Source: an uncultured Pseudomonadota bacterium
Lineage (GTDB): Bacteria; Pseudomonadota; Alphaproteobacteria; Rs-D84
Assembly (NCBI GenBank): GCA_902762295.1
Contig: CACWNX010000001.1
Span: 596,094 to 660,093 of the forward strand
Direction of reading: 5' to 3'
Length of the DNA: 64,000 nt
The notes below the pieces were generated by a model. The model ran no database searches. It was not told where the DNA came from and saw nothing but the letters and a program-made list of their open reading frames with translations. A program made the translations under genes and the position numbers. The number at the start of each line of letters is the position of its first letter. The first letter of the stretch is position 1. This document shows, piece by piece, positions 4,401 through 53,669 of this stretch.

Positions 4401-5717
4401 TTGCGTGAAAACCTAAATAGAAAAAACGCATTGATTGAGGATAAGCCTGGTGATAATGCATCTCAATGGGAGGTTGTTGATTGGCGCGCTGAAATTGCAA
4501 GGTTGGATAAAAAGATCAACGAACAGATTAAAGAATTTGGTTCTGCAGCTGATGCTGTTGCACATGCGAGTGCGGATGAATCACGTTTGTATTATCCAAT
4601 GCCGGTTCCCGGCATCCAGGCGCAAAAGAAGGCTGCGCGTCGTGCCGAATATGAATCGCATCGTGCAGAAATCTTGGAAACCCCATTGCCAAAACCAACA
4701 TCGCGCGTAAAACCAACCCAAGACGAAATTGTTGAAGATGCTGAATTCGTACCCGAATTTGATTTGCCAGAATATGAAAGTCAATTCAACGATGATGTGG
4801 ATTTAGACATTTCAAATCATCGTGTGCCTAAATTAGATTTGGGTCGGTTCAAAAAACCAAAATATGATATTAGTGATGATGAAATTCGTGTAATTGGCGG
4901 CAATGATGAATTTGTACCAGATTTATCAAAAAACACGAATGAAAAACCGGTGTCGCACGTGATTCATGAAAAACCACGTCACAATGAACGCGGTGGTTTG
5001 GTCGCGGCATTGCGCAATGCGTATAACAAAATCAAGAAACGCGTTTCGGGTCGTGAATATTTTGTGCCGGAATCTTTGATTTCAATCGCCGAAAATGCAA
5101 ACTTGATGCACGATCCGGTTGCAACAATTAACGGTGTACCGATTCATTTGGTTGATTTAACCGGTAATAATACACCAATCACACAAAACAATGATCGTGC
5201 CGTTGTGGTTGTTGATATTCGTGGATTACGTATACCGTTCTATTTATCAAACGGTGACGAGGACGGCAAGGCAGGGCATTGGACACCGTTGCAATCATTG
5301 TTCCGTGATGGTAAATGGAAGTCGTTCATGTTCATCAATAATAAGTTATCACATATCCAGGCGTTGTCTATGATAGCCGATGCATTAGATAACAAACTTG
5401 GCGATATTCGTAACTATCGTGATATTGAATTGACCGCAGAGTACCAGGCCAGTGGCAAAGATGGTTTTGTCGGCGGCGCAGATGCAATCGAACATGTTAA
5501 CCCAGATACCATATTCCGATTGATAAACGGTGCAAGATACGAAAGTGTCAACAACCATATGATATTCGGGACATACAGTGACAGTCGTGTTAGTGCCGAA
5601 GCAGCATGGTTGCAAGAATATTTGGACGAAAATGGATTGCCATCTGATGATGTAGTAGAAGAAAATATGAATTTGCTGCAGAGATGGCGCGCAAGACGCA
5701 AATCCAAGCATGAATAG
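1443..5717 (+). CDS. very large (1424 aa) hypothetical membrane protein with soluble N-terminal domain, Gly/Ala-rich TM block and Pro-rich KPELP/KPVP repeats; no recognisable catalytic motif
   Basis: Long uninterrupted ORF, GGAGAGGAAT SD-like sequence before the ATG. Hydrophobic segments at about aa 420-560. Repeats PDLPVKRQKPELPAEREKPELPVKPGG...KPVPIEKPVPKPVVVP. Confidence 0.7.
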   Translation: MPENIRATSDENLIAFAKNIATTYGKMGLLAKRLVTQVVTSTNNIDAVNRVISKVGQLDPESKKLFGNYFVGENLENLEMATRAPAILAAAYEYISEHRDDSDEMRERFARIGAHVDTLSANFANTGGMVVNGGEWPLVDTNNIADAYTGLLRTFAARRADIERSGDNAKVAEFNNNLDLLQTVIAEYDHNWGLSNLYPEHAGKLEDRWSDLWDALNRAELTPELKEKLHQWGFTDAKGNEIPQFKKNGKLDKSGRLAAIIDLTRHDIAKQHAARINEKIDEDALAVELNEKIEFKLYNMAVADKVASSAKIQAMREQNPDYEPDYEPEIDIARFNSDQDYRAAVLDKLSEYGAIISDTGYNAQVDADVNATAGWTARVKSKLRNGAENLGGFFERVFHPISRVDRLANVRLAGSMVDKRTRRIQFIKRLAKGFGSAFIYSAFLTVIVTTVAATTGMSAAVATAVLGGSLAIGIGVKQVLRWRRAQQKANKPTDIHAFLSDKRLVASLGVSAIAVIAMCFGAAGMTELARGFGGLALGVGATKNAVEGGLDTWARGGSTLQAIAAGLANAGAVIAGGLTGRGLTNLGMDWINKLFPRNTFLQTEHTHTEQREVTEQVEHTRTVTDWPTETTHEAAVRNWFGARYPHNPEVMQGLLDAVNHYNADTGANLDPWAALRGIALSGGDPNHGVYNAPDWFNSHGFAAEQIHDAANALHPDGTYDPVGMETLKDLVTHHLSSKGYVGEMPGHTIKTSTDVYQSRGEMPTQRTETWTELKSHVENYDKTDYDSVNDGAYAAGGNYNSKVYRGLRDRIGAVDNYPFNSLRPSDRRKPIEPIIKPTDDERDGDIDVFPPVVVRRPDLPVKRQKPELPAEREKPELPVKPGGDVDIFKPVPIEKPVPKPVVVPILDDDEPEDKIFAITRPQAKAWKDLQERLKKVRAKLKKGPHGSKAAKLREEESKLTYFIKNLCNQIGHYDPDVIDLASKEALLRENLNRKNALIEDKPGDNASQWEVVDWRAEIARLDKKINEQIKEFGSAADAVAHASADESRLYYPMPVPGIQAQKKAARRAEYESHRAEILETPLPKPTSRVKPTQDEIVEDAEFVPEFDLPEYESQFNDDVDLDISNHRVPKLDLGRFKKPKYDISDDEIRVIGGNDEFVPDLSKNTNEKPVSHVIHEKPRHNERGGLVAALRNAYNKIKKRVSGREYFVPESLISIAENANLMHDPVATINGVPIHLVDLTGNNTPITQNNDRAVVVVDIRGLRIPFYLSNGDEDGKAGHWTPLQSLFRDGKWKSFMFINNKLSHIQALSMIADALDNKLGDIRNYRDIELTAEYQASGKDGFVGGADAIEHVNPDTIFRLINGARYESVNNHMIFGTYSDSRVSAEAAWLQEYLDENGLPSDDVVEENMNLLQRWRARRKSKHE

Positions 5718-6759: not shown

Positions 6760-8289
6760 TTATTTCACGCTGTATTTACCACGATTTGTTGGACGATATG
6801 ACAGTGCCTCGGTGATATCGGACATTTCAACATTTTCCGCCCCACGCAAATCGGCAATTGTACGTGCAATGCGTTTAATGCGATTATATCCGCGTGCAGA
6901 CATCCCCATCTTTTCCGCCGCCATGTTCAAGAAATTTGTCAATTCATCGGAAAGTGGCACATGTTTTTCTAAATCGGCACCATCAAGGCGCGCATTCACA
7001 TAGCCCTGGCGCGATATTTGGGCGGCGCGTGCACGAACAACGCGTTCGCGAATTGTCGCACTGGATTCCGCCGGTGCCGAATTATCATTCTTCATTTCCC
7101 ATGGATTTACCGCATCAACATCAACATGCAAATCAATACGGTCAAGCAATGGCCCCGAAATTTTATTCTGATATGCCTCGGCACATCTGGGCGCGCGCGA
7201 ACAGGACAGGGCGGCATTACCCAAATGGCCACATGGACACGGATTCATCGCCGCAATCAGTTGGAATTGTGCCGGATATGTCGCGTTACGCCGTGCGCGT
7301 GAAATCATAATTTTGCCCGATTCCATTGGTTGTCGCAGTATTTCCAATGTCGCACGATTAAATTCAGGTAATTCGTCCAAAAACAAAACCCCGTTGTGCG
7401 CCAATGATATCTCACCCGGTCGCGCATCCGAACCACCGCCCGCCAATGCGACCGGACTTGATGTGTGGTGCACACTGCGGAATGGACGTTGCGATACAAG
7501 GCTTTTATTATCTAATCCACCGGCAATAGAATAAATAACGGATGTTTCCAGAATTTCATCTGCGGTCATTTCGGGCAGAATGGTTGCCAATCGCGATGCC
7601 AACATCGTTTTTCCCGATCCCGGCGGGCCAACCATTAACATTGCATGTCCACCCGCCGCCGCGATTTCCAGCGCGCGTTTTGCCGCGGCCTGGCCATGAA
7701 CCTCGGCCATATCAATATTTGATTGATTTGTTTGATTCATCACTGGTGCATCCGGCAACGCAATCGGATTTTTACCATTAAAGTGATTTATCAGTTCTAA
7801 AACATGATTTGCCGCCAAAATATTATCATGTCCCGCCAATCGTGCCTCGGTTCCCTGGGGGCCAGGGCATATAATACCAAATCCGTTTTTATTTGCCCAA
7901 ACACTTGCCGCCAGAACGCCATTTGTTTTAACAATCGCACCATTCAGACCGACTTCGCCAATAATAATATATTTTGATAACTTATCTTCGGGCAGTATAT
8001 CAAATGCACACAATATTCCGCACAGTATCGGCAAATCAAAATGTGCACCGGTTTTTTCTACATCGGCGGGCGACAGGTTTACCGTTAAACGTTTTGATGG
8101 TAATTGCAATCCCAGTGCAGATAACACATTTATAATGCGTTGCGCCGATTCTTTGACCGCGCGATCCGCCAACCCGATAATACTAAAATCTGGCCGTGCC
8201 AGTCCATGTGAAATCTGAACCTGGACATCTATCTTGGTGGCATCCATGCCATTAAAGATAACAGAATATAACGAAATCATGATTATCAC
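6760..8289 (-). CDS. comM: Mg-chelatase-like AAA+ ATPase ComM/YifB
   Basis: N-terminal Lon-protease-like subdomain, Walker A GPPGSGKT, C-terminal ChlI-like domain with CPCG zinc motif. Confidence 0.85.
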   Translation of the reverse strand: MIIMISLYSVIFNGMDATKIDVQVQISHGLARPDFSIIGLADRAVKESAQRIINVLSALGLQLPSKRLTVNLSPADVEKTGAHFDLPILCGILCAFDILPEDKLSKYIIIGEVGLNGAIVKTNGVLAASVWANKNGFGIICPGPQGTEARLAGHDNILAANHVLELINHFNGKNPIALPDAPVMNQTNQSNIDMAEVHGQAAAKRALEIAAAGGHAMLMVGPPGSGKTMLASRLATILPEMTADEILETSVIYSIAGGLDNKSLVSQRPFRSVHHTSSPVALAGGGSDARPGEISLAHNGVLFLDELPEFNRATLEILRQPMESGKIMISRARRNATYPAQFQLIAAMNPCPCGHLGNAALSCSRAPRCAEAYQNKISGPLLDRIDLHVDVDAVNPWEMKNDNSAPAESSATIRERVVRARAAQISRQGYVNARLDGADLEKHVPLSDELTNFLNMAAEKMGMSARGYNRIKRIARTIADLRGAENVEMSDITEALSYRPTNRGKYSVK

Positions 8290-19261: not shown

Positions 19262-20275
19262 ATGCTGCATACATCGGATTTTGATTTTGAATTGCCAACC
19301 GAATTGATTGCATCACACCCATTGGAACGGCGCGATGCATCGCGTATGTTGGTGGTTCGCGATAGTGGTGTTGAAGATAAACATATTCGTGATTTTTTGG
19401 ATTACCTGCGACCCGGTGATGTGGTTGTGTTTAATAACTCTCGTGTTATTCCGGCGCGCTTTGATGCGGACGGACATGAAATCACACTGCATACTGCGCT
19501 AGATGATAAAAATTGGTGGGGGCTGTGTAAAAAATTTAATAAAATAAATATCGGCGACATATTAACAATGACCGACGGTACAACGATTACGGTTGTTGAT
19601 AAAGATGATGAAAGCGGATTGTTGTTGCGGTTTAATTGCGATAATGTTTTTGATGTGCTGGGGCGCATCGGCAAAATGCCATTGCCGCCATATATGAAGC
19701 GTGAAGCCGAGATTGCCGACCAAACACGTTATCAAACGGTCTATGCCGACCCATTGGGTTCTATGGCGGCACCAACTGCGGGACTGCATTTTACGCCCGA
19801 ATTGATGGCGGAAATTGAAAATCGTGGCGCAAAAATTGTAAAGATAACTTTACATGTTGGCGCGGGTACATGGATGCCGGTCAAGACCGAAAATCTTTCC
19901 GAACATAAAATGCACAGCGAATGGTGCTGTATCACACCAGAGCAGGCAGACATTATAAACAACGCCACGCGTGTAATCGCCGTTGGCACAACGACACTCC
20001 GCACACTGGAAAGTGCCGCCCGAAATGCCACCGGTGGGGCGCGCGTTGCGCCAATTTGCCGGACAACCGATATATTTATTACACCGGGTTATAAATTTCG
20101 TGCGGTTGATGTGTTGTTAACGAACTTTCATTTACCAAAATCTACATTGTTTATGTTGGTGTCGGCGTTTTCGGGCCTGGATGAGATGAAGGCGGCATAT
20201 GCCCACGCCGTTGCAGAAAAATATAGATTTTTCAGTTATGGCGATTGTTGTTTGTTGTTTAGAAAGGATACATAA
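19262..20275 (+). CDS. queA: S-adenosylmethionine:tRNA ribosyltransferase-isomerase
   Basis: Characteristic QueA N-terminus (FDFELP..LIA..P...RD.SRLL) and length; adjacent to tgt. Confidence 0.9.
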   Translation: MLHTSDFDFELPTELIASHPLERRDASRMLVVRDSGVEDKHIRDFLDYLRPGDVVVFNNSRVIPARFDADGHEITLHTALDDKNWWGLCKKFNKINIGDILTMTDGTTITVVDKDDESGLLLRFNCDNVFDVLGRIGKMPLPPYMKREAEIADQTRYQTVYADPLGSMAAPTAGLHFTPELMAEIENRGAKIVKITLHVGAGTWMPVKTENLSEHKMHSEWCCITPEQADIINNATRVIAVGTTTLRTLESAARNATGGARVAPICRTTDIFITPGYKFRAVDVLLTNFHLPKSTLFMLVSAFSGLDEMKAAYAHAVAEKYRFFSYGDCCLLFRKDT

Positions 20276-20276
20276 T

Positions 20277-21389
20277 ATGTCACTAAAATTCAATTTAATT
20301 GCAACCGATGGAAATGCGCGGCGGGGCGCGGTTTCAACCGCGCACGGGACATTTCAAACGCCCGCTTTTATGGCGGTGGGGACGGCGGCGACGGTCAAGG
20401 CATTGACTATGGACCAGGTTCGCGCGACCGGAACCGAAGTAATTTTGGGCAACACATATCATTTAATGATGCGCCCCGGTGGCGATTTGGTTGAACGCAT
20501 GGGCGGTTTGCACAAATTTAGTGGTTGGCATGGCCCAATTTTGACCGACAGTGGCGGGTTCCAGGTTATGTCGCTGTCTAATCTGGTTAAAATGAAGGAA
20601 GAGGGTGTAGAATTTACTTCACACATTGATGGTGGTGTAAAACATTTCCTGCGCCCCGAAGATTCTGTGCATATTCAGCATCAACTGGATTCCAATATCA
20701 CAATGGTGTTGGATGAATGTCTGCATTTGCCGACCACGCGCGACCGCGCCGAAAAAAATGTAGATATGGTGACGCGTTGGGCGGCGCGCAGTAAATCTGC
20801 GTTTGTTGACCGCGATGGATACGGCATTTTCGGTATTGTCCAAGGCGCAGATTTCCCCGACCTGCGTGAAAAATCTGCGCGGGAATTGACCGCGATTGGT
20901 TTTGACGGGTACGCGATTGGTGGGCTGGCCGTGGGTGAACCCCAGGAAGTAATGTTCAAAATGATTTCAACCGTTGCACCGATGTTGCCAAATGATAAAC
21001 CGCGATATTTAATGGGGGTTGGAACGCCACTGGATATACTGGGCGCGGTGGAACGCGGTGTTGATATGTTCGATTGTGTTATGCCAACGCGCGCGGGCCG
21101 TACGGCAATGGCATTTACCCGTCATGGTACAATGAATATGCGCAATGCAAAATATCGTGATGACAGCGCGCCCATTGATGATAAGTGTGGTTGCCCGGCG
21201 TGTAAACTTTCGCGCGCGTATATTCATCACCTTATAAAGTGCAACGAAATTTTGGGTGCGACATTACTTACACAACATAACCTTTGGTTTTATCAAGATT
21301 TGATGCGTGGCATCCGCGAAGCAATAGAGCAGGGACGTTTTGCGGAATTCAAATCTGAATTTATAAAAAATTACACGGGTGAAAACTAA
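20277..21389 (+). CDS. tgt: queuine tRNA-ribosyltransferase
   Basis: MSLKFNLIATDGNARRGAV...TPAFMAVGT...: Tgt N-terminus; zinc site CxCxxC...H near the C-terminus. Start set at ATG 20277 (AAAGGA SD) rather than the ORF-track 20199, which would overlap queA. Confidence 0.9.
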   Translation: MSLKFNLIATDGNARRGAVSTAHGTFQTPAFMAVGTAATVKALTMDQVRATGTEVILGNTYHLMMRPGGDLVERMGGLHKFSGWHGPILTDSGGFQVMSLSNLVKMKEEGVEFTSHIDGGVKHFLRPEDSVHIQHQLDSNITMVLDECLHLPTTRDRAEKNVDMVTRWAARSKSAFVDRDGYGIFGIVQGADFPDLREKSARELTAIGFDGYAIGGLAVGEPQEVMFKMISTVAPMLPNDKPRYLMGVGTPLDILGAVERGVDMFDCVMPTRAGRTAMAFTRHGTMNMRNAKYRDDSAPIDDKCGCPACKLSRAYIHHLIKCNEILGATLLTQHNLWFYQDLMRGIREAIEQGRFAEFKSEFIKNYTGEN

Positions 21390-27678: not shown

Positions 27679-29067
27679 CTACATATTCTTGTGATAATAG
27701 CGGTAAACTTCGGCCATTACGAAATTAAACAGCCGTGCCGCCGGTCCATCGTCTTTTACGAATTTACCAAGCCGTGTGTACGGCATTGCCGCCACCAGAA
27801 CAAACCGTGCCATAAAACGAAAGATTGCAATCTGTTGTGTCATATCAAGTTTTGAAGATGAATGCACCACACGAAATATTTCGTTTTGCACCGCGGCATC
27901 CAGTTTATTCATTATCGTATCAACAATATGCGTTGGGTAATACATTTTGCATTCGCGCGGGAAACCTTCAAATAACGATACATCACCACCGCGACTGTAT
28001 AAAATATTCCATCCAACGCGTTCAAACAAATCGTCCAAGCATTGGCATATCATCAAATTATATTTATCTATGCCGTCCTTCATAAGGTCCGCCGCTTCTT
28101 GTTCAATGATTGCATCGGCGGTATCTGGGTGTTCACGCAGTGTTGCATAATAGTCATGTGTTTTGCGTTCAAATTCAAAGAATGTTCGAACCTGGCAAAT
28201 TATTTCCATTGGGATAACATTGTCGGGTGTGCCAATATTCACAATAACCTTGGAATCACGATAGTTGCGTGGATTTCCAATATCATAGAATTTATCACGC
28301 ACCGTCAAAACACGTTCCGGCATAATTTCGTGCAGCCGTTCAATAAATGTTCGCGCCTGGGGTATTAAATCAAACAGACATTTCACGCGCCAAACATCAT
28401 TCAAATGCTTATGCGGTTTCTTGATTTTATCAAGATTGCGAACCAGTGTCGCGACCAGTTCTTTGTCTGAACAATCTATTAACGATAAAACCGCCGCAGA
28501 TGCATCAGTAATATATTTTTCGGAAAAACATTTACGAATTTTGGTTATGGTTTCCGCAGTTTGTTTTTTTCCAAATTTATCCGATACGGTTTTTTCAACC
28601 ACAGATATTACATCTTCAATAAAAAAACGATAGTATTTACCACAAACCTTGTCTATGGCGCGTTCTACGTTTTTTTGTGCACCGACAATAACCGTGACAA
28701 TTGACGATACCGACAAATCAATTTTATGCGCCGCGCCCGATGTAAAGAACTGATTACGCATTGGGTCAACATCTAAGCGATGATTCACCAAATACGCCGA
28801 CAGCGGATTTATATCTGCAATCTTTATTGGTTTTTCCACCGGCAAATCGGTTTCTGGGTTATATTCCATCACCGCCGTTTTTGGTGCGCCGAAACATTTA
28901 CCCAATGTATGAAAAACATCACGATAGCAGTCCATACCGTTGCTGTAAAGTCGCGTTAAATAATCGGCGGCTTCGTCATTTATGCGACCAGATGCGCGAA
29001 CCTTGGCAATATATTCAAGGTTGTGGCGGTCGCGGTCGGCGGTCAAAAGATTTACATCTGGTTGCAT
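27679..29067 (-). CDS. hypothetical 462-aa soluble protein (ORFan)
   Basis: Long ORF with no internal stops. No motif I can assign; no TM segments. Ends 4 nt from the lysS start, so probably co-transcribed. Confidence 0.55.
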   Translation of the reverse strand: MQPDVNLLTADRDRHNLEYIAKVRASGRINDEAADYLTRLYSNGMDCYRDVFHTLGKCFGAPKTAVMEYNPETDLPVEKPIKIADINPLSAYLVNHRLDVDPMRNQFFTSGAAHKIDLSVSSIVTVIVGAQKNVERAIDKVCGKYYRFFIEDVISVVEKTVSDKFGKKQTAETITKIRKCFSEKYITDASAAVLSLIDCSDKELVATLVRNLDKIKKPHKHLNDVWRVKCLFDLIPQARTFIERLHEIMPERVLTVRDKFYDIGNPRNYRDSKVIVNIGTPDNVIPMEIICQVRTFFEFERKTHDYYATLREHPDTADAIIEQEAADLMKDGIDKYNLMICQCLDDLFERVGWNILYSRGGDVSLFEGFPRECKMYYPTHIVDTIMNKLDAAVQNEIFRVVHSSSKLDMTQQIAIFRFMARFVLVAAMPYTRLGKFVKDDGPAARLFNFVMAEVYRYYHKNM

Positions 29068-30809: not shown

Positions 30810-30989
30810 ATGGTAAAGACCGTGTACCCACCCGTCTTTGATAAAGAATCGGGCAAGTGGATACTGCGAATTTTGAATACGAATGGATATTTACAAATTG
30901 TTGAATTTGTAAATCGCCAATCCTTGGAAAACTATCGTGATGAAATGATGGCGTTCCAACGCAATTTGCATCCGGAATTATCGCGCTAG
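30810..30989 (+). CDS. small hypothetical protein (59 aa)
   Basis: AAGGAAAAGAGAAAAAGAG purine-rich SD immediately upstream of ATG 30810. The ORF-track version starts further upstream at 30690. Confidence 0.35.
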   Translation: MVKTVYPPVFDKESGKWILRILNTNGYLQIVEFVNRQSLENYRDEMMAFQRNLHPELSR

Positions 30990-32233
30990 GCGCGTTTCAC
31001 ACCGGTGGCATGTACGGTTTGTGGTGCATGTGATTTTCCATGAATTTTTGATGTCGCCGTTTTATATACCTGACGTTTCATTTCATTGCGGAATGCGATA
31101 AAGTCCGCCGTTTTGTTATCCTGGGTAATATCTGATGTGCCGAATACCAGTTTATCATCATCAAAGTATTCAATTATATCTGGATTTATTCGGTTCAACA
31201 GGTTTCCAATTGTTCTATCACTGAACTTTGTTTTGCCATCGTGTGCGACCGGATTTCCCAACCATTCATCAAATGGGATCAGTGTTTCCATATTTATGAT
31301 CGGGTGTTCTTTGTCGCCACCCCAGAAAACATCTTTTTTACCGCCCATCATCTTCATAAATTCGGACAGTGTTCCCATTGGTAATTCCAAGAAACTTTTT
31401 GGATTTATGTTGCCCATTAAAACCTGGCCCTCCATCCAGCGACGCGACCATAATCCCCGACCACCAACGACATACAGCCCCAATACATTCGCAAGTTCTT
31501 TATCCGATGCGCCACTGATTGCCAATTTTCCAAAAGACCGCGGTTCGGTAATTGGGTATTTTGCAAAGCATTCACGAACCATTTCCGCCGTCACATTATT
31601 GCCATATTCTTTATACAATTTCCGCAGTGTTTCATTACGATTGCGATGGTTTTTGTTTTCGGGTTCTTCCATCAGTTTGGTTCCTGAATTATAAAATATC
31701 GATGCGAACGCGCATTGACGACCGGGGGTATCCAAACGCAGGCTATCACAGCCCACATCATAGCAATACATCATAAAATATGTTTCACGATTTTCCAGCA
31801 CATTAACCGATTCATCCCATGCGTTTTCTATTGGTATTGGTTCGGTTTTTGATGTCACTTTTTTGCCGTCGCGGGTACTGGTCATGCCGAACGCGATTGT
31901 CCATATACCGCGGGAATCTTTGTACGGAATGCAATAGTTGCCGGTTTTATCCAATTTTACCCCTTCGGTCAGCATCAGTTCCAGCATTACATACGGTGTA
32001 ACCGGATTCAGCATTTTCCGATATTCGCCATATGTCATATCTTTTTGATTTTTTTTGATATGTTTTGTATTGGTGGTTTGTTCTGTTGGGGTGGGGGACT
32101 TGTCACGTGTATCGCGTGCACCTTTGACAATTCCCTGGCCAAGTATGGCGGTTGCCGCCAATGCCAGTGTTGCATTGGTCAGTGTAGTTTTATTCAGTTT
32201 GCGTTTTTTCTGTATTATTTTCATATCTATCAC
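30986..32233 (-). CDS. secreted GH24 (phage/T4-type) lysozyme-like muramidase with ~200-aa C-terminal extension
   Basis: Signal peptide (TLTNATLALAATAILG). LMLTEGVKLDKTGNYCIPYKDSRGIWTIAFGMTS matches the GH24 catalytic E...D...G(x)WTIG(x)G pattern; later FASIFYNSG. Confidence 0.6.
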   Translation of the reverse strand: MIDMKIIQKKRKLNKTTLTNATLALAATAILGQGIVKGARDTRDKSPTPTEQTTNTKHIKKNQKDMTYGEYRKMLNPVTPYVMLELMLTEGVKLDKTGNYCIPYKDSRGIWTIAFGMTSTRDGKKVTSKTEPIPIENAWDESVNVLENRETYFMMYCYDVGCDSLRLDTPGRQCAFASIFYNSGTKLMEEPENKNHRNRNETLRKLYKEYGNNVTAEMVRECFAKYPITEPRSFGKLAISGASDKELANVLGLYVVGGRGLWSRRWMEGQVLMGNINPKSFLELPMGTLSEFMKMMGGKKDVFWGGDKEHPIINMETLIPFDEWLGNPVAHDGKTKFSDRTIGNLLNRINPDIIEYFDDDKLVFGTSDITQDNKTADFIAFRNEMKRQVYKTATSKIHGKSHAPQTVHATGVKRA

Positions 32234-35676: not shown

Positions 35677-36385
35677 ATTTTTTATTTTCGTTTTTTATCG
35701 GTGGTGGCGCAACCTGGGTCAACATCTGGTCAAAATTCTTAGAAATTTCGGCGGTTGAATCCAGCCAATCGGTTATTTCGTCTATAATATTTCGTATATG
35801 GCGCGCAATTACGCGCCGACCACCCCCAAGGTGATGCGTGCCAACCAGTCGCGACATATCACGTGTTAGTTCCGTCATTATGCGCATTTGTTCCGGCGAA
35901 AAAACATTTTCCTTTGCGTACCCCAGAATAAGATTTTCCAGTTCTTCGTAATATTGGTGCAGTAAATTCATATTGTCCATTCGCAACGACAATTCGCGTG
36001 CAATGTGCGCCTCGGAAAGGGCGCGCATAGAATTTACAGCACCGCGTGTCAGCCGCCCACGCATCTTTATCATCTTGCGCAGAATAATCAGCGTATGCAA
36101 CATAATCGTATTGATTTTATCGGTCATGCCATTAATCAGGGTTTCTTGCAATCGTCGCGACACCCGGTTTGTCGTGTAATCGTAAAGCAAAAACACCAGC
36201 GGTATCGCCAACAATGATGCGGAAATATTGCTAATCAAACCTTCAACTGCCGGGTCCCGGACATTGTCCAATGATACCGAAAACAGAACAATTCCGCCGG
36301 CGATGGATATTGCATACGGCAAAGTTTTCAGCAAAAAATTACGAATTTTGTTTCTCATGGCATAAATTTTGCCAAAAATACCCAC
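35675..36385 (-). CDS. hypothetical membrane-anchored protein (236 aa)
   Basis: Two N-terminal TM helices, then a soluble helical region. No motif recognised. Confidence 0.45.
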   Translation of the reverse strand: MGIFGKIYAMRNKIRNFLLKTLPYAISIAGGIVLFSVSLDNVRDPAVEGLISNISASLLAIPLVFLLYDYTTNRVSRRLQETLINGMTDKINTIMLHTLIILRKMIKMRGRLTRGAVNSMRALSEAHIARELSLRMDNMNLLHQYYEELENLILGYAKENVFSPEQMRIMTELTRDMSRLVGTHHLGGGRRVIARHIRNIIDEITDWLDSTAEISKNFDQMLTQVAPPPIKNENKK

Positions 36386-36485
36386 ACCCCGCTATAAGAT
36401 AAAATCCCCGAACGCGCTTGAATTTCCCCGCATTTTGTACTATAATTATGGGTGTGTGGTGACATCAAACCAAAGGGGTCAGACA

Positions 36486-38999
36486 ATGACAATGAGTATG
36501 AAAAAATTTCTTGAAACATATTTTAAACTTGTTCGCTTGAAAGAAATGCGGTCTGATGATATCGAACGCTGGGTTCAATTTGAATCTTTGGTAAAAAAAG
36601 CCGACCTTACAAAAAACATGGCCGATTGGGTCAAGTTGTTAGAAAAGGATCCAATAACTGGTAATATTACCATAGACCCCGCGGATGGTTTCTATAAATT
36701 GATAAATTTAGACCCGAATGAATTAAGTGATAATGACTGGAAAGAATTATTTCTTAACACACAAAATGCTATGTCGGGACTGGTTGCACGACGCAAATCT
36801 TATGCAAACTTAGGTGAAGATGATATAGTAAATTTTATAGATGATAACAAAGACCGTTTTGAAAAAGCATGGGGCGACACAAAAGAGGCAACGCCAGAAA
36901 CAGAAGCGGCCATTGATTATTTAGTCAATAAACTAGATGATTTATTGAAAAAAAATCCTGATTTGTTTAGACAGCTTGGTTTATCCTATGTTAATATACA
37001 TGAACTAAAAGCTAAAGTTGCGCGTAAAGATTATAATAAAGCAGAATTTCAGAAAGAGATACGTGATATTGCGCAAAAATATACAGAATTTGTTTATGAT
37101 GATAGTAAAAAAATTGCCGGTATCGATAAAGACGCTGAAAATCTGGCTGATGAGTTTCGTGCCAATAATGTTGGATTTATCAGTAATGATTATGCCGGTT
37201 GGATTACCCCAGAGGTTGATGCTGCTAAATTGGCAGATTTTAAACTGCATTACCCAGATTTTATGCAAACATTGTATAAGAATCAAAAGGTTCTTGATGC
37301 GTTTAAACAGCACGAAGGCCAAAACAATCAGATATCTGCTGCTATTGCCGTTGCCAAAGAAAAAGTTGATTATGCAAATCCAGAATCAAAAGATTATGTC
37401 CAGCCAAAGCGTTCGGACGAACTTACGTTATTTCAACAAGTAAAGAAATACGTTGGTGATACATATGAAAATTTATTTGAAAAATATACAAAGTTACGTG
37501 GAGATAGAATATACCTTAATCCGGCAACAAAAGATGTTTGTAAAGCCATAGATAAAGCAGGCATAAAACCAACAGATGGATTAGGAAAAATTGTTGAAAC
37601 CGCATCAAACATAAAAGCAAATTTAAAAGGCAAACATAATGCCAGCGCTGCGTTTGAATGGTTAGAATCAACACTTAACGATTTTAAAAATGATTTAAAT
37701 ATGGCAAAATCTTTTGCAGGCGCTTTAAAGAACGGACGTCAAATGAAAAATTTGATCGCGGAACTTATTATGAAAGCCGCCAAGGATGCGCAAGATCCAA
37801 AAAACGGGAAAACAAAAGAAGATGTTATAAAAAATGTCAAAATTGCTATGGAGGTTTTATCCATCATTAAATATGCCAACACAACAAGCAAAATTATGGG
37901 TGCAATTAAAGACGACAAAGAATTATTCAACTTTATGTCAAACAAGGACTTGTCGTGGAATAAAAATGCGGGCGTACAGTTCGTAACAAGCGCGCTAGAT
38001 AAAAGTGTCCGTGCCGCTTTCATTGGTATTGGTTATGGTGCAACTTTACTAACAAATACTATCAGAAAATCTGGAAGTAAATTTAATCAGAAATTCAAAA
38101 ACAAAGGCATGAAAAATTCTTACAAGACATGGAACACAAAAAACACCGCATACAAAGGTGAGCTTAATACGCGAGTGGCTGCAGATGCCGCCGGCACTTC
38201 GGCGGATGCGATGAATCGCGATGCAAATGTTATGAGAAAAGGCGCTGCTTTGGTTGGGTTGGGTGTTGCCGGTGGTGGCGCGGCGGATGTTGAATTAAAA
38301 CAAAAAGAGTTAGATACTACGGGGCGTCAAGATGAATTAAAGGCTCAGTATGCACTTGAACCATATGAACAATTATTACAACAATTACAACAAGTCCTTG
38401 ATATCAAGAAAAAATTAGAACCGATTGAGGCACAAGAAGCCGCCCTGCGAGCGGCTGTAATGGCAGCAGGACCAGATAAAGACGTAAAAGTTGCAGAATT
38501 AACAGCATTGTTAAATTCAAAAAAAAGTCTTGTGGAACAATTGGAAAATTTCAGGGATGTTATTGATTTAGGAATTGTTGGTCTTGGCGTCGTAGATATT
38601 GATGCAGTTACTGTTGCTGATATTGAAGCAATAATGGATCATATTCAGAATGTTGATCCCGGTTATCAGAATGCTGTGTTAGATTATGAATTAATCAGTC
38701 AAGAAAACGCAGAAAAGCAACAACATATAAATGATTTTCGCAAAGCGACAGAAGAAATAAAAAATTCACAAGCAAGTATGGATCGTCGTGCAAAAGAATT
38801 AGCAGATTGGGATAAAAAACACATTGATGTATACAATGAATTAATGGCGTATTGGGATTTCTTGGAAACTGGGCGCGATTCTCATACAGGAAAGTTATAT
38901 AGCTGGCGTCCGGGTAATGCCGAAAACAAACAAAAACCTATGCGTGCCGATGCATTAGCTAAGTTTGCTGCATTCCGCAGTGGATACCATGCGGCGTAA
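36486..38999 (+). CDS. large hypothetical protein (~838 aa) with extensive coiled-coil/Lys-rich regions and a Gly/Ala-rich hydrophobic segment
   Basis: AAAGGGG SD before ATG 36486 (MTMSMKKFLE...). Heptad-rich segments (ELKAQYALEPYEQLLQQLQQVLDIKKKLEPIEAQEAALRAAV). GAALVGLGVAGGGAA segment. No enzymatic motif. Confidence 0.6.
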   Translation: MTMSMKKFLETYFKLVRLKEMRSDDIERWVQFESLVKKADLTKNMADWVKLLEKDPITGNITIDPADGFYKLINLDPNELSDNDWKELFLNTQNAMSGLVARRKSYANLGEDDIVNFIDDNKDRFEKAWGDTKEATPETEAAIDYLVNKLDDLLKKNPDLFRQLGLSYVNIHELKAKVARKDYNKAEFQKEIRDIAQKYTEFVYDDSKKIAGIDKDAENLADEFRANNVGFISNDYAGWITPEVDAAKLADFKLHYPDFMQTLYKNQKVLDAFKQHEGQNNQISAAIAVAKEKVDYANPESKDYVQPKRSDELTLFQQVKKYVGDTYENLFEKYTKLRGDRIYLNPATKDVCKAIDKAGIKPTDGLGKIVETASNIKANLKGKHNASAAFEWLESTLNDFKNDLNMAKSFAGALKNGRQMKNLIAELIMKAAKDAQDPKNGKTKEDVIKNVKIAMEVLSIIKYANTTSKIMGAIKDDKELFNFMSNKDLSWNKNAGVQFVTSALDKSVRAAFIGIGYGATLLTNTIRKSGSKFNQKFKNKGMKNSYKTWNTKNTAYKGELNTRVAADAAGTSADAMNRDANVMRKGAALVGLGVAGGGAADVELKQKELDTTGRQDELKAQYALEPYEQLLQQLQQVLDIKKKLEPIEAQEAALRAAVMAAGPDKDVKVAELTALLNSKKSLVEQLENFRDVIDLGIVGLGVVDIDAVTVADIEAIMDHIQNVDPGYQNAVLDYELISQENAEKQQHINDFRKATEEIKNSQASMDRRAKELADWDKKHIDVYNELMAYWDFLETGRDSHTGKLYSWRPGNAENKQKPMRADALAKFAAFRSGYHAA

Positions 39000-46820: not shown

Positions 46821-48089
46821 ATGTCTGAAATTGTTCCTATTTTAAGTGATGTCCAGAAAATTGCGTTTGACACGATTGAACGCACTAATTCAAATGTGCT
46901 TATCTTGGGTCAGGCGGGAACCGGCAAGTCAACATTTATAAACTATATTAAATCTGCTACGAAAAAGCGCGTTGTTTGCGCGTGTCCAACGGCGGTCGCG
47001 GCGCTTAATATTGGTGGTGCAACAATCCATTCGTTGTTCAGAATTCTGCCACGCGACTTTATATTTCCGGAATTCTTGGAATTACATGCCAAGGTTCGTA
47101 ATATTTTGACCGCGACCGATGTTTTGATTTTGGACGAAGTTTCAATGATTGCTCCCGATTTGATGGATGCAATGGATATATTGGCGCGTCGCGCGCGCAA
47201 GAATGATGCGCCGTTTGGCGGAATCCAGGTTGTTGCAATCGGCGATTTGTTTCAATTACCACCGGTTATAACACGCGATGCAACCAAATATTATGAATCT
47301 GAATATGGACATAGCAAATCGTATTTCTTTGACAGTCATGTTTACCCGCGTATAAATTTTATACGATTCAATTTTGATTTGGTTTATCGTCAAAGTGATA
47401 TTGAATTATTGGAAAAATTGACCGCGCTGCGAACCGGCAATATGAACGCCCTGGGGTTCTTTAATGCATGTAAAATATCTGATAATGAACGATATAAAAA
47501 TGCGGTTTTGATAACACCTTTTCGCGCGGTGGCCGATCGGGTAAATATGGAACGACTGGGACAAATTGATGCGCCTGTTGTTTCGTATGTTGGGGAATTG
47601 TCGGGCAATTTTTCCGAACGTGATGTACCGGCACCGATGAATTTAGAACTAAAGGTTGGTGCGTTGGTTGTGTTTGTTAAAAACGGTGACCGGTGGCACA
47701 ACGGTTCAATGGGTGTTGTGCAAAGCATGACATCGCGTGAAATAATTGTTCAATTACTGAATCGTGAACGCGATATCGTCGTTGTAAAACCCGAAAAGTG
47801 GCAGAAAATTGAATATTCGCGTGATGAGAATGACCGATTGGTTGAAAATGAAATTGGCGCATATAAGCAGTTTCCGCTTGCATTAGGCTATGCGATGACC
47901 ATACATAAATCCCAGGGCAAAACACTGGATTCGGTAATTGTTGATATATCGCGTGGCGCGTTCGAGCATGGTCAAACCTATGTTGCACTTTCACGCACGC
48001 GTTCTGCCAACGATATGCATATTGCCCGACCACTTTCCATGCGAGATGTAATCTTTGACCCGCGGGTGCTGGGATTTGTGGGCGAGTAA
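46821..48089 (+). CDS. Pif1-family (RecD-like SF1B) DNA helicase
   Basis: Walker A GQAGTGKST, Pif1 motifs (DEVSMI, GDLFQLPPV, ...TIHKSQG...). About 420 aa; no N-terminal accessory domain. Confidence 0.8.
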   Translation: MSEIVPILSDVQKIAFDTIERTNSNVLILGQAGTGKSTFINYIKSATKKRVVCACPTAVAALNIGGATIHSLFRILPRDFIFPEFLELHAKVRNILTATDVLILDEVSMIAPDLMDAMDILARRARKNDAPFGGIQVVAIGDLFQLPPVITRDATKYYESEYGHSKSYFFDSHVYPRINFIRFNFDLVYRQSDIELLEKLTALRTGNMNALGFFNACKISDNERYKNAVLITPFRAVADRVNMERLGQIDAPVVSYVGELSGNFSERDVPAPMNLELKVGALVVFVKNGDRWHNGSMGVVQSMTSREIIVQLLNRERDIVVVKPEKWQKIEYSRDENDRLVENEIGAYKQFPLALGYAMTIHKSQGKTLDSVIVDISRGAFEHGQTYVALSRTRSANDMHIARPLSMRDVIFDPRVLGFVGE

Positions 48090-48099
48090 AAAACGCGGG

Positions 48100-48489
48100 T
48101 TAGCGTTTTTTTTGATTTCGCAGTTTTATAATTTCTTTTCGTTGTTTTTCAATTATTTCTACTAATTCTGGAACAGATTTGGTATATAAAATATTGTTTT
48201 TTGTTGGATGAATTTTAATATTGCCGTATTTTAATTTTTGTAACATAAAATTTACAATGGTTTGCGGTGTTGGGTCCTGGTTGAATATTTCATAAAACAA
48301 ATCTTCTTCATCGGTGTTAAAATTGCAATGCACGCGGTGCGCCACCCGCACAAAAATTTCTGCTTTATCCAAAGAATCTAATTCAAAATTATATACCAAA
48401 TTTGTATCTTGTTGTATAGATTTAGGCTCAATACAAAAGATATGACCAATTACATCCTGAACAATTGTCAATATTTGTTTTTCATTCAT
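48100..48489 (-). CDS. acyl-carrier-protein-like protein with C-terminal basic extension
   Basis: FELDSLDKAEIFVRV matches the ACP phosphopantetheine-attachment DSL(D) motif; 129 aa. Confidence 0.45.
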   Translation of the reverse strand: MNEKQILTIVQDVIGHIFCIEPKSIQQDTNLVYNFELDSLDKAEIFVRVAHRVHCNFNTDEEDLFYEIFNQDPTPQTIVNFMLQKLKYGNIKIHPTKNNILYTKSVPELVEIIEKQRKEIIKLRNQKKR

Positions 48490-48500
48490 GTTTTTATCCT

Positions 48501-48911
48501 TTAAATTTCTTTGATCATTAAAATTGCATCTACACCGTCATAGTATTTTGGGCGGCGACCATTTTGGTTGAAACCGCATTTTTTATACAGATTGATTGCC
48601 GGAATATTTTCCGCCGATGCTTCTAAAAATATTTTCTTTACACCGGATTTTTTAATCTCGTTTTCCATGATACCAAGCAGGGCGATTGCAATTCCTGTGC
48701 CACGCGCATCGGGGTGAACACCAATAGTTATAATTTCTGCTTCGTCAAGAACGGTGCGCCAAACAATAAAACCATTTTCAGATGCCACGATTTCACATCC
48801 CGATTTTTTTAATTCTGCAAAATCGTCCGCACCCCACGGTTTATGTGGAAAACAAAGTTTATGAAGTTCGGCAATTTTATTTAGCATTTTTATTTTTTGC
48901 TTCTTCGGCAT
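48501..48911 (-). CDS. rimI: GNAT N-acetyltransferase RimI (ribosomal-protein-alanine acetyltransferase)
   Basis: GNAT acetyl-CoA motif (IGVHPDARGTGIAIALL). Classic position immediately downstream of and overlapping tsaB. Confidence 0.75.
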   Translation of the reverse strand: MPKKQKIKMLNKIAELHKLCFPHKPWGADDFAELKKSGCEIVASENGFIVWRTVLDEAEIITIGVHPDARGTGIAIALLGIMENEIKKSGVKKIFLEASAENIPAINLYKKCGFNQNGRRPKYYDGVDAILMIKEI

Positions 48912-49428
48912 AACTTTGGCGCAAATACATTGGCACGACCGGTTCTGACCCGCCCCGATTCAATTTATCTTGAACAATTCCAGTAGCCAATTTTAAATCA
49001 AATGGTTTATGCCCAACGGTACGCGGACATTTCATTTGTTCAGATTCAACTTCTTCAATACTCATCGTACAAGGTTCGTGTTGTGGTGACGCAACAAAGA
49101 AATCACCGCGCCCGGAATCGATTGCAACAAATGCATCCGGTGTTGCCGTCAAATATAATTCAAACGCGTTGATTCCGACAACCGGAATATTTAATCCTAA
49201 TGCTAGGCCCTTGGCATAGGCAATTCCCATGCGAATTCCGGTAAAACTGCCCGGCCCGACAACAACACCAATCGCGTTTAAATCTGACCATTTTGCACCG
49301 CATTCGTTTAAAAATGATTCCGCCGCCGCGGGCAGGGCGATTGACTGTTTTTCCACCACAACAGACTTGTGATGCTTATCTAGCACAAATTCTAAACCCG
49401 TTCCCGAAGTATTTATAATAAATATCAT
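48877..49428 (-). CDS. tsaB: tRNA threonylcarbamoyladenosine biosynthesis protein TsaB (YeaZ)
   Basis: GVVVGPGSFTGIRMGIAYAKGLA motif of the inactive Kae1/YgjD homologue family. Overlaps rimI by 35 nt. Confidence 0.8.
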   Translation of the reverse strand: MIFIINTSGTGLEFVLDKHHKSVVVEKQSIALPAAAESFLNECGAKWSDLNAIGVVVGPGSFTGIRMGIAYAKGLALGLNIPVVGINAFELYLTATPDAFVAIDSGRGDFFVASPQHEPCTMSIEEVESEQMKCPRTVGHKPFDLKLATGIVQDKLNRGGSEPVVPMYLRQSYAEEAKNKNAK

Positions 49429-49437
49429 AATAGTCCC

Positions 49438-51234
49438 CTAAATACCAACCCCGAATCCAATGCGTTTGGAAAAACCGGCAGACTGTTGCAATGATAACAA
49501 ATCATCTATCTTTTGAATTGTGAATTCGGTTGGCGTATCGTTGCCATCGTTTTCCAATAATTGCCGTCGCAGAATTGCCGCAATTTCGCGTTGCAGTTGG
49601 CGAACCCCCGATTCCGCAGTATATTTTTGAATTATATGCCGAATTGCATCGTCAGAAATGGTTATGTTGTCTGGATTCCAACCTGTATCCGCCGCCGCAC
49701 GCGCAATCAAATGTTCGCGTGCAATTTGAACCTTATCATCTTCGCTGTAGCCGGGAATTTCAATAATTTCCATTCTATCCTTTAATGCGCCCGACATATT
49801 CAAACTGTTTGCGGTTGCGATGAACAATACATTTGATAAATCAAAGTCAACCTCAAGATAATGGTCACGAAACGCACGATTTTGTTCGGGGTCTAATACT
49901 TCTAGCAATGCCGATTCTGGGTCGCCACGCCAATCGCGTCCCATTTTATCTATTTCGTCCAACACGATAACTGGATTGTTTGATTTTGCGCGTTTTAACG
50001 CATCCATAATGCGTCCAGGTTGCGAACCAATATAGGTTTTACGATGCCCACGAAAGTGCGCCTCGTCCGAAACCCCGCCAAGTGATATACGATGATATTT
50101 TCGTCCCAATGCCGCGGCGATAGATTTACACAGTGATGTTTTTCCGACACCCGGTGCCCCAACAAAGCATAAAATGCTGCCTTTATTTGAACCGGTCTTT
50201 TTCATAACCGCAATGTGTTCTAAAATGCGTTCTTTGACGGCGCGCATGCCGGAATGTTCGCTGTCCAGTATTTTGCGTGCAACATTTAAATCAATTTCCG
50301 ATTTATCGGACTTTCCCCACGGCATCGCCAACAATTCATCAAGATATGTTTTAATAAGTCCACCTTCGTTTGACATTGGCGACATATTGCGCATGCGTTT
50401 CCATTCAGATACCGCCTTGTCCTTGACATCCGATGGCATTGCGGATTTTTCAATTTTCTTGCGCATATTTACTGTATCAGATTCTTCGTCATCTTCGCCC
50501 ATTTCTTTTTGAATTGCGCGCATTTTTTCTTGCAATATGGCATCACGACGACCTTGCTCCATCTGCATGCTGATACGGCGATTTATGCTGTCTTCTACCT
50601 TAGATGTTTCATATATTACACGAATTTTTTCAAACAGCATAACCATTTTATCATACCACGACGGGGTAATCAGAATCTGGATTGCGACATCTGTATCAAT
50701 CTCGGCGGTTTGCAACATAGAATCGATGAATGCCGGCATCGGATAGTTTTGAATCACACTGCGCAATTTATCCATTTTTAACTTTCGGAACAGTGACATT
50801 GCCTGGACCATTTCAAAAATTTTATCACGCATTAAAATTGTGCGTTCATCGGCAATATCATCACCCATTGGAACGATATCAACATCAGATGTGAAAATGC
50901 CATTATCAACCGAGATATTTTTCATTCGGACAACCATTGTTGTGCGAATCACCGTATGCAATGAACCATCTGGCATGCGCAGAACTTGGGCAATTTCGCC
51001 AATTGTACCGTATTCATACAAATCGCCCGGTGCAGACGGATATGCCGTTCCATGTTGCGGCGCCAATATAACATTCTGATGCGCGGCAACCGCCGATTCA
51101 ATACAGGCAATTGAAACCAGGTTATCAATATAGATTGGCACCGTCATTCCGGGATGCACAACCAAATCACGACAAGGTAAAATGAATTCTTTCATAGCAA
51201 TACTAAATATAGACACAATTTTATCGTTTTTCAA
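49438..51234 (-). CDS. Lon-like ATPase: Lon N-terminal (LON/PUA) plus AAA+ module, without an S16 peptidase domain
   Basis: N-domain, then Walker A GAPGVGKTS, Walker B VIVLDEIDKM, sensor and helical subdomain (VRQLQREIAAILRRQL). The ORF stops about 15 aa past the point where Lon's protease domain normally begins. Confidence 0.8.
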   Translation of the reverse strand: MKNDKIVSIFSIAMKEFILPCRDLVVHPGMTVPIYIDNLVSIACIESAVAAHQNVILAPQHGTAYPSAPGDLYEYGTIGEIAQVLRMPDGSLHTVIRTTMVVRMKNISVDNGIFTSDVDIVPMGDDIADERTILMRDKIFEMVQAMSLFRKLKMDKLRSVIQNYPMPAFIDSMLQTAEIDTDVAIQILITPSWYDKMVMLFEKIRVIYETSKVEDSINRRISMQMEQGRRDAILQEKMRAIQKEMGEDDEESDTVNMRKKIEKSAMPSDVKDKAVSEWKRMRNMSPMSNEGGLIKTYLDELLAMPWGKSDKSEIDLNVARKILDSEHSGMRAVKERILEHIAVMKKTGSNKGSILCFVGAPGVGKTSLCKSIAAALGRKYHRISLGGVSDEAHFRGHRKTYIGSQPGRIMDALKRAKSNNPVIVLDEIDKMGRDWRGDPESALLEVLDPEQNRAFRDHYLEVDFDLSNVLFIATANSLNMSGALKDRMEIIEIPGYSEDDKVQIAREHLIARAAADTGWNPDNITISDDAIRHIIQKYTAESGVRQLQREIAAILRRQLLENDGNDTPTEFTIQKIDDLLSLQQSAGFSKRIGFGVGI

Positions 51235-51242
51235 GGGTAATA

Positions 51243-51270
51243 AAAAATCCCCAGAATTTGGGGATTTTTA
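51243..51270. terminator. bidirectional intrinsic terminator
   Basis: aaaaaatccccagaatttggggattttt. Confidence 0.6.
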
Positions 51271-51288: not shown

Positions 51289-51513
51289 TTAACGACGGCG
51301 ACCGTTAAAACCATGCTGTTGGCTGCTGCCTGAACGTTTTGACAGATAACGTGCGGCGATAATCACCAACCATTCCAGTGCCAATGCACCCATTGCAACC
51401 ATTTTCTGTTCTAATTCTAACCAACCAATAACATAAACCAACTGGGCAATGAAAGATATATACAAAATTCCAAAAACACCACTAAAAAACACTTTTTTTA
51501 TTTTTCCTAACAT
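51289..51513 (-). CDS. small hydrophobic protein (74 aa, two predicted TM helices)
   Basis: ORF with an AAAGG SD-like sequence upstream. Hydrophobic throughout. Low certainty that it is expressed. Confidence 0.35.
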   Translation of the reverse strand: MLGKIKKVFFSGVFGILYISFIAQLVYVIGWLELEQKMVAMGALALEWLVIIAARYLSKRSGSSQQHGFNGRRR

Positions 51514-51640
51514 TTTATTACCTTTTTGTTCCTGTTATGTTTCATATATTATATTCCGGGTTTCTGGTGCCAGGCACCCGGCGGCCCCGCAAAAAAGCTG
51601 AACAGATATAATCAACAATCGCCAATTATATCAAACCTAA

Positions 51641-53669
<2,029 letters not shown>

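Follow-up and report, generated by a model that had tools for sequence, protein, structure and literature searches.

What does a Lon enzyme do once its protease is gone? By definition, Lon is an AAA+ protease that joins its ATPase and its peptidase in one chain, and the question is raised by a gene, here called lon', in a 64,000-nucleotide stretch of DNA from an uncultured alphaproteobacterium of the Rs-D84 lineage (GenBank assembly GCA_902762295.1, contig CACWNX010000001.1, positions 596,094 to 660,093 of the forward strand; hereafter the window). A first-pass annotation, made from the sequence alone, described a Lon homologue with an N-domain and an AAA+ module and without the S16 peptidase domain, and proposed either a naturally protease-less unfoldase or chaperone, or a recent deletion. 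The comparative analysis reported here leaves very little doubt that lon' is a functional gene for a protease-less Lon ATPase. Its key feature, which the first-pass annotation missed, is an invariant [K/R]IGF motif in the C-terminal tail of the protein.

Gene limits and domain content

As first called, the open reading frame (ORF) spans 49438..51234 on the minus strand and encodes 598 amino acids (aa) from a TTG start. Nearly all homologues begin with MKEFILPC and are 584-587 aa long, and the corresponding ATG of lon' lies at 51195. Thus, the coding sequence is taken as 49438..51195 (table 1), and the TTG at 51234, formerly read as the start codon, is actually the -35 hexamer of the gene's own promoter. 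In the 598-aa ORF, Pfam places a LON_substr_bdg domain at residues 18-202 (PF02190, covering profile positions 4-196 of 200), an AAA domain at 355-491 and a Lon_lid at 517-557, with no match to Lon_C (PF05362). The NCBIfam model for endopeptidase La, TIGR00763, aligns over positions 2-563 of its 795 with 544 bits, below its cut-off of 608 bits, and lon' is 39% identical to residues 13-585 of Escherichia coli Lon. All three comparisons confirm the architecture proposed at first sight: the N-domain and the AAA+ module with its lid are those of LonA, and the S16 Ser-Lys peptidase is missing. Membership of the ClpX, ClpA or ClpC families finds no such support, the NCBIfam search returning no match to ClpX and, for ClpA, one of a generic AAA+ kind (1.4e-10; 40 bits, where the cut-off is 993). 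Furthermore, the PDB sequence matches of lon' are all LonA (best 6u5z, 2.6e-128), as are the best structural matches of an AlphaFold2 (AF2) monomer model with a mean predicted local distance difference test score (pLDDT) of 81.5, whose AAA+ part superposes on Lon 6n2i at 2.4 A.

The manner in which the protein ends deserves closer description. Approximately 37 residues follow the lid helix, first a short strand-helix element and then a tail of about 15 residues predicted by AF2 to be disordered. In alignments with E. coli Lon and with P0124, a full-length Lon of a sister lineage (see below), the counterpart of the strand-helix element leads into the protease domain, and in the alignment with P0124 only the last 8-10 residues or so of lon' match the first beta-strand of that domain. 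The first-pass annotation had let the gene stop some 15 residues into the position of the protease domain, and had seen no room for a frameshifted remnant before the next gene. A six-frame tblastn search of the entire window with the C-terminal domain of E. coli Lon gave nothing better than E=0.8. Directly downstream, tsaB begins 9 nt past the lon' stop codon (table 1).

The ATPase machinery is retained. In an alignment of 52 sequences, Walker A (G346-T353, with K352), the pore-loop-1 residues T387, Y388 and G390, Walker B (D413/E414), sensor-1 (N463), the arginine finger (R474) and sensor-2 (R532) are all invariant; K352, Y388, D413/E414, N463, R474 and R532 correspond to K362, Y398, D423/E424, N473, R484 and R542 of E. 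coli Lon. Together with the LonA-like model, this invariance suggests that substrate recognition, ATP hydrolysis and translocation by the lon' product appear intact. In effect, lon' resembles LonA (E. coli Lon, MEROPS S16) in its N-domain, long helix, lid and AAA+ module, the last with a pore loop of the Lon type (TYIGS), but differs in the loss of the entire peptidase domain and in ending with a disordered tail. Natural Lon derivatives have been reported previously, namely LonC or Lon-like-Ms, in which the protease is kept and the ATPase is degenerate (PMC4864567), and iLON, which consists of an N-domain only (PMC8889267). As in lon', one activity or domain was lost naturally in these proteins; unlike them, lon' keeps the N-domain and an intact ATPase, the protease being the part that is gone.

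Distribution, selection and origin of the truncation

When 5.8 billion proteins were searched, over 120 clusters with members near 585 aa and 73-100% identity to lon' were recovered, none of which carries Lon_C. In one scan of GTDB species genomes 287 relatives were found, and among the best 80 of these, which were the copies examined, 79 are complete; all 79 are 584-587 aa long with the same end, and 78 are intact. The remaining copy (L049) has an additional in-frame stop within lon', which may be a sequencing error or a rare variant. A scan of metagenomes added 73 complete copies of 584-589 aa. The gene is under strong purifying selection, with a median ratio of nonsynonymous to synonymous substitution rates (dN/dS) of 0.067 (Nei-Gojobori, 218 close pairs). 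By region, the ratio is 0.105 in the N-domain, 0.059 in the linker (residues 190-300), 0.038 in the AAA+ module and lid, and 0.081 in the post-lid and tail region.

These data bear directly on the suspicion that lon' is an artefact or a decaying gene, that is, the product of a sequencing or assembly error, of a recent deletion, or a lon pseudogene. The gene does look like a truncated lon, and its NCBIfam score falls under the cut-off for lon. Nevertheless, the stop lies at an identical position in hundreds of independent assemblies from many hosts, the truncated form recurring in the genomes of 79 GTDB species, on 73 contigs from metagenomes and in 180 clusters of proteins. A dN/dS of about 0.07, the invariant ATPase residues and the conserved promoter speak equally against decay, as do the lack of a downstream Lon_C remnant and the depth of the truncated lineage, which stands at approximately 50% identity. 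The comparative data thus refute an artefact or pseudogene, to which we attach practically no probability. Recent deletion and sequencing error, both raised by the first-pass annotation, fall with it, and the conserved truncated architecture and purifying selection support the other possibility that it named, a naturally protease-less Lon-like unfoldase or chaperone.

The hosts, uncultured Alphaproteobacteria recovered from the rumen or gut of goat, yak, buffalo, deer, sheep, chicken, human and wolf, bear the labels Candidatus Enterousia, "Rickettsiales" or "Alphaproteobacteria bacterium". Enterousia belongs to the order Rs-D84 and has genomes of about 0.75-1.0 Mb and a fermentative metabolism that includes neither a tricarboxylic acid cycle nor a respiratory chain (PMC12306168). 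One circular chromosome of a metagenome-assembled genome bearing lon' (L059) measures 958,618 bp. Two copies come from bins with other names, "Bacteroides fragilis" (L071, CAVGNU010000005.1) and "uncultured Muribaculaceae bacterium" (L050, CAZJGX010000006.1), and these contigs are probably mis-binned. An apparent duplication of lon' on JAIDWS010000009.1 (24,088 bp; L067/L069) was rejected as an assembly artefact, the contig having a 5.3-kb terminal redundancy with ends 99.7% identical. NCBI names the proteins "AAA family ATPase", whereas the JGI name, "ATP-dependent Lon protease", is misleading. Automated annotation may count them as Lon, and Rs-D84 genomes may lack any Lon protease activity.

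When and where was the protease domain lost? Among 1.84 billion representatives, the nearest to lon' beyond its own cluster include two truncated proteins, P0121 (593 aa) and P0122 (580 aa), with 51-53% identity, and also the full-length Lon P0124 (769 aa), with 51% identity and with the catalytic Ser and Lys still present. Both P0124 and a second full-length protein, P0284, lie in the gene order lon-tsaB-rimI, as lon' does, and this order is kept in truncated and full-length lineages. In the tree (neighbour-joining only, from the N-domain and AAA+ region), all truncated forms make up one clade, sister to the clade of syntenic full-length Lon, and both nodes have 100/100 bootstrap support. Given one truncated clade with a full-length sister at the same locus, the protease domain was lost a single time, long ago and in place, when the lon gene at this locus shed S16 in an ancestor of the Rs-D84/Candidatus Enterousia lineage. 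Divergence since then has brought the truncated gene down to about 50% identity, and in the lineage of P0121 and P0271 it has been relocated to other loci. Separate truncations in three lineages, with convergent IGF tails, were considered and are ruled out by the monophyly of the truncated lineages, which indicates a single origin. A full-length orthologue at this locus, which the first-pass annotation would have counted against a natural truncation, does exist, though only in the sister lineage (P0124 and P0284), where it reveals the ancestral state and not an error in the window sequence.

The same positional orthology to a canonical full-length Lon argues against a role in anti-phage defence as a BrxL-type Lon-like ATPase, an idea also raised in the first-pass annotation. 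Lon-like modules do exist in BREX, and PADLOC returns weak, generic AAA+ matches to lon' (DolB, 6.6e-13). However, PADLOC gives no match to BrxL, the neighbours are housekeeping genes (ssrA, obg, tsaB, rimI) in conserved synteny, and the recovered genomes and contigs carry lon' at the same conserved locus. We regard a defence function as extremely unlikely; the observation that no defence partner genes lie near lon' agrees with both PADLOC and the neighbouring genes.

Full-text literature searches turned up neither a naturally occurring LonA that lacks the protease domain nor a Lon-type ClpP partner, and nothing on the protease content of Enterousia or Rs-D84. Here a whole bacterial lineage retains, at the ancestral lon locus, just the ATPase half of the enzyme, which makes it a natural experiment on Lon minus protease.

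The C-terminal motif and the possible fate of the substrates

The tail of lon' is variable except at one point. The alignment columns of I579, G580 and F581 have zero entropy, while those around them in the tail range from 1.3 to 2.6 bits, and the residue before IGF is always K or R. The codons are free to vary: in 80 genomes I579 is encoded by ATC 25, ATT 46 and ATA 9 times, G580 by GGT 28, GGC 12, GGA 26 and GGG 14 times, and F581 by TTC 28 and TTT 52 times, the amino acid remaining unchanged throughout. [KR]IGF is found in 180 of 181 protein clusters and in every 3'-complete locus. It is common to all three truncated lineages, in which the subsequent residues differ (GVGI, RTATPAVRL and SERF). 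Full-length sisters read D-[AV]-V-G-[VI]-[IV] at this position, the first strand of the protease domain. Among 103 full-length LonA representatives, F581 aligns with V in 56, L in 14, I in 10 and other residues in the rest, but never with F; two basic residues precede the position in three of them. Four of the six motif positions are thus altered from the ancestral strand, including V/I to F. As judged from these alignments, the motif arose out of what had been beta-strand 1 of the missing protease domain. Zero entropy, the scatter of synonymous codons and the absence from full-length Lons together indicate that [K/R]IGF is a short linear motif, derived and under strong selection, that sits in a flexible tail.

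A tripeptide of the form [L/I/V]-G-[F/L] on a flexible, exposed element is what unfoldases of the ClpX, ClpA and ClpC type use to engage ClpP, and lon' has one, placed in the C-terminal tail and not in an internal loop. At the docking tripeptide E. coli ClpX reads ETGSGIGFGATVK, and E. coli ClpA reads ERKSIGLIHQ, with basic residues preceding the motif as in lon'. IGF loops dock into the hydrophobic H sites of ClpP (PMC9035409). A PDB sequence search with ClpX, intended to find IGF loops across species, had only E. coli variants among the matches listed. The likeness to ClpX and ClpA is therefore that of a hexameric-type AAA+ unfoldase with a flexible I-G-F(-G) element (GIGFGA in ClpX, RKSIGL in ClpA); the differences are that lon' belongs to the Lon clade of AAA+ proteins and not to Clp/HslU, that its motif sits in the C-terminal tail, and that its partnership with ClpP is putative. 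Docking by tails has precedents of another kind, as the C-terminal tails of the ATPase rings of HslU, PAN, Mpa and ARC insert into pockets of HslV or the 20S proteasome. The principle matches that proposed here for lon', but those proteins rely on their terminal residues and carboxylate (HbYX, GQYL, the HslU tail), whereas lon' has an internal invariant tripeptide; its last 3-9 residues are variable (1.3-2.6 bits), and no conserved extreme C-terminus of the HbYX type is found.

In this context, we put forward, as a tentative proposal in which our confidence falls somewhat short of even, that the lon'-derived unfoldase hands its substrates to a separate peptidase, most likely ClpP, by way of the IGF tail. 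The hexamer would still select and thread substrates, which would no longer enter a fused proteolytic chamber; instead, six IGF tails would insert into hydrophobic clefts on a peptidase ring encoded by another gene, and a single-chain protease would in this way have become a two-component one. The lid of LonA ends where the chain passes to the protease ring, on the exit face of the ATPase ring, so a tail at this place would be expected to face a stacked peptidase. A LonA unfoldase that has shed S16 and evolved an IGF docking peptide would, with the same reserve, represent a class of ClpP partner so far unknown, and it might possibly dispose of both ssrA-tagged and Lon-type substrates. The ssrA tag encoded at the window locus retains the canonical AANDN...AA form, which in E. 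coli and Caulobacter is read by SspB and ClpX, and this gives a weak hint that a route of the ClpXP type persists.

Several points weigh against docking to ClpP and keep our estimate below even. The first concerns the partner: clpP and clpX were not found in the window, and the flanks of 168 related loci, 2.3 Mb in all, contain none of clpP, clpX, hslV and hslU. Likewise, no clpP occurs in the 10 kb past each end of the window (20 kb in total). This absence says little, because the regions searched cover one shared neighbourhood of genomes of approximately 0.9 Mb. Second, the I/V-G of the motif is inherited from the Lon strand VG[VI], and about 11 of the 103 full-length Lons already have [IV]GL at this position, so that the resemblance to the Clp motif could be partly coincidental. 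Third, ClpX and ClpA carry the motif on a loop within their large AAA+ subdomain and not on a C-terminal tail. Fourth, the tether is short, with only about 8-10 residues between the folded part and IGF. Finally, one cluster of seven members (P0035) departs from the motif, reading KRICFG for KRIGFG. This ICF form may itself be a sequencing error or a rare variant.

The main rival to docking is a stand-alone unfoldase, chaperone or remodeller of proteins or DNA-bound proteins that acts with no peptidase partner, a possibility that we rate only slightly below docking itself. Under it, the N-domain and AAA+ ring would unfold, disaggregate or remodel their targets, and the tail would take over the part of the missing protease ring in holding the hexamer together, or would serve autoregulation or the binding of a partner other than a protease. 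The conserved substrate-binding and translocation parts of lon' accord with such a function, as does the finding that no peptidase gene lies nearby in the 168 loci. Protease-independent, chaperone-like activity is known for proteolytically inactive yeast Pim1 and human LONP1, so that, as in lon', an N-domain and AAA+ module can be useful without proteolysis; those cases, however, are engineered (Pim1 S1015A) or moonlighting full-length proteins with a protease ring, whereas in lon' the domain was deleted in nature. Moreover, the protease ring of LonA strongly aids hexamer stability, and thus a replacement contact would be needed after its loss. What a stand-alone function leaves unexplained is why the invariant island should be exactly [K/R]IGF(G/S), the docking motif of ClpX and ClpA. 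A further point against it is that AF2 predicts disorder for the part of the monomer that holds the motif. With nothing to receive the threaded chains, such a motor would also seem less economical in a 0.9-Mb genome, although precedents of the ClpB type exist.

In an alternative scenario, the peptidase would be supplied in trans by an orphan S16 domain, complemented by the tail acting as a beta-1-like strand, or by a different peptidase, for example HslV. Strand complementation is conceivable given that the tail derives from the first strand of S16, and the docking of C-terminal tails onto HslV and the 20S proteasome is an established principle. Yet no Lon_C-like ORF occurs in the window or within 10 kb on either side of 166 truncated loci, and a tblastn search of the 168 related loci with the C-terminal domain of E. 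coli Lon matches only the two full-length sister loci. The sole Lon_C-like domain in the window is that of an ordinary ComM/YifB. Furthermore, the changes at four of the six motif positions, with V/I to F among them, have moved the tail away from the ancestral strand, and what follows the motif shows no homology to that strand and differs among lineages. As for HslV, docking of the HslU type needs the extreme C-terminus, which is variable in lon'. We therefore consider a split Lon, or a pairing with HslV, improbable.

Should the tail of lon' indeed dock to ClpP, it would be the first ClpP partner from the Lon family and a concrete case of partner swapping among AAA+ protease systems. It would bear on the evolution of unfoldase-peptidase pairing and of symmetry-mismatched docking, and would provide a natural evolutionary intermediate from a one-chain to a two-component AAA+ protease, in gut Alphaproteobacteria with minimal genomes.

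Promoter, neighbouring genes and further features of the window

On the minus strand, the order is ssrA, a small membrane ORF, a hairpin terminator, the promoter, lon', tsaB and rimI (table 1).

Table 1. Positions of lon', its parts and its neighbours in the 64,000-nucleotide window.
Feature	Position	Strand	Basis or remark
Two-piece (permuted) alphaproteobacterial transfer-messenger RNA gene ssrA	51553..51895	minus	Rfam RF01849, 169.8 bits, E=6.8e-49
74-aa predicted membrane ORF upstream of lon'	51289..51513	minus	ORF list; no Pfam match
Hairpin and T-run terminator of the upstream small ORF	51242..51266	minus	atcccc-aaattc-tggggat-tttttt
Promoter TTGAAA-17-TATATT	51206..51234	minus	Best promoter-like site in region, 10/12 matches
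lon', protease-less LonA-derived ATPase (true coding sequence)	49438..51195	minus	585 aa + stop codon; homologue starts and lengths
Lon N-terminal substrate-binding domain (residues 5-189)	50629..51183	minus	PF02190, E=4e-19; pLDDT ~90
Long helix and linker, N-domain to AAA+ (residues 190-300)	50296..50628	minus	AF2 helix 180-231 and following helices
AAA+ large subdomain of lon'	49762..50172	minus	PF00004, E=1.6e-22
Lon lid (small AAA+ subdomain), including sensor-2 R532	49564..49686	minus	PF22667, E=2.6e-16
Post-lid strand-helix element (residues 549-570)	49486..49551	minus	AF2 strand 556-558, helices 560-573
Flexible C-terminal tail (residues 571-585)	49441..49485	minus	AF2 pLDDT <50; high entropy except motif
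K577-R578-I579-G580-F581, invariant [K/R]-I-G-F motif	49453..49467	minus	Read from sequence; comparative data
tsaB	48877..49428	minus	PF00814; 9 nt downstream of lon' stop
rimI-type GNAT acetyltransferase, overlaps end of tsaB	48501..48911	minus	PF00583

The promoter is shared widely, a site of the form CTTGAA-N16-17-[C/T]TATATT being present upstream of lon or lon' in 84 of 89 loci, including those of the full-length sister clades, and it appears to resemble the RpoH-type consensus of Alphaproteobacteria. In Enterousia its end lies 9-10 nt before the ATG (10 nt in the window), which implies a nearly leaderless lon' mRNA in this group; in the sister clades there are about 20 nt between promoter and start, with a Shine-Dalgarno sequence. 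The terminator hairpin separates the small upstream ORF from the lon' promoter and has equivalents upstream in most related loci. Downstream, tsaB is probably in one operon with lon'. Relatives have a gene of 74-77 aa called at the same place upstream of lon'. In 93 of 121 Enterousia-type loci ssrA precedes lon' by about 450 nt, with its tag ORF within 1 kb; in the sister clades ssrA is not adjacent to lon. ARAGORN missed ssrA in the window and detected it in 41 related loci. On the opposite strand, an ORF called as obg (51656..52933, plus strand, 425 aa, TTG start) overlaps ssrA; since Obg homologues are 339-345 aa long, its real start is near 51914 (MKFLDKAK) and the N-terminal extension is spurious.

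Other genes next to lon' or its relatives were examined as candidate partners and rejected. A 138-aa ORF between lon' and tsaB in L002 (GCA_045647355.1, 11768..12184) was translated; it has no obvious Lon_C features and no recorded Pfam match, and tblastn finds no Lon_C in L002. A 105-aa ORF after P0121 and a Peptidase_S51 gene after P0271 are not conserved partners. Convergent to lon'-tsaB-rimI lies a gene for a PIF1-family helicase (422 aa, 46821..48089, plus strand), whose position is kept in the Enterousia relatives L002, L003 and L093; this family is unusual for a housekeeping neighbourhood in a reduced genome. Between it and rimI, a 129-aa ORF (48100..48489, minus strand) with faint similarity to PP-binding (acyl carrier protein-like) domains is present in the near-identical contig L093, and no corresponding ORF is called in L002 or L003.

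Elsewhere in the window, the ComM/YifB-type Mg-chelatase-like ATPase (6760..8289, minus strand), an ordinary housekeeping gene, provides the only Lon-protease-like fold detected, its N-terminal ChlI domain (PF13541) being related to Lon_C. Four large ORFs have no Pfam match at E<=1e-8, namely 1443..5717 (plus, 1424 aa), 36369..38999 (plus, 876 aa), 27679..29067 (minus, 462 aa) and 30986..32233 (minus, 415 aa), which fits a published remark that Rs-D84 has many hypothetical, possibly surface or transport, proteins. Finally, on L174 (ENA ERZ27279989, k141_1704341), apparently the window's own 549-kb contig, phage-like genes (Phage_Bbp19 and a head-tail connector) lie at 19637..20993, approximately 9-10 kb to the left of the window start, and may belong to a prophage.

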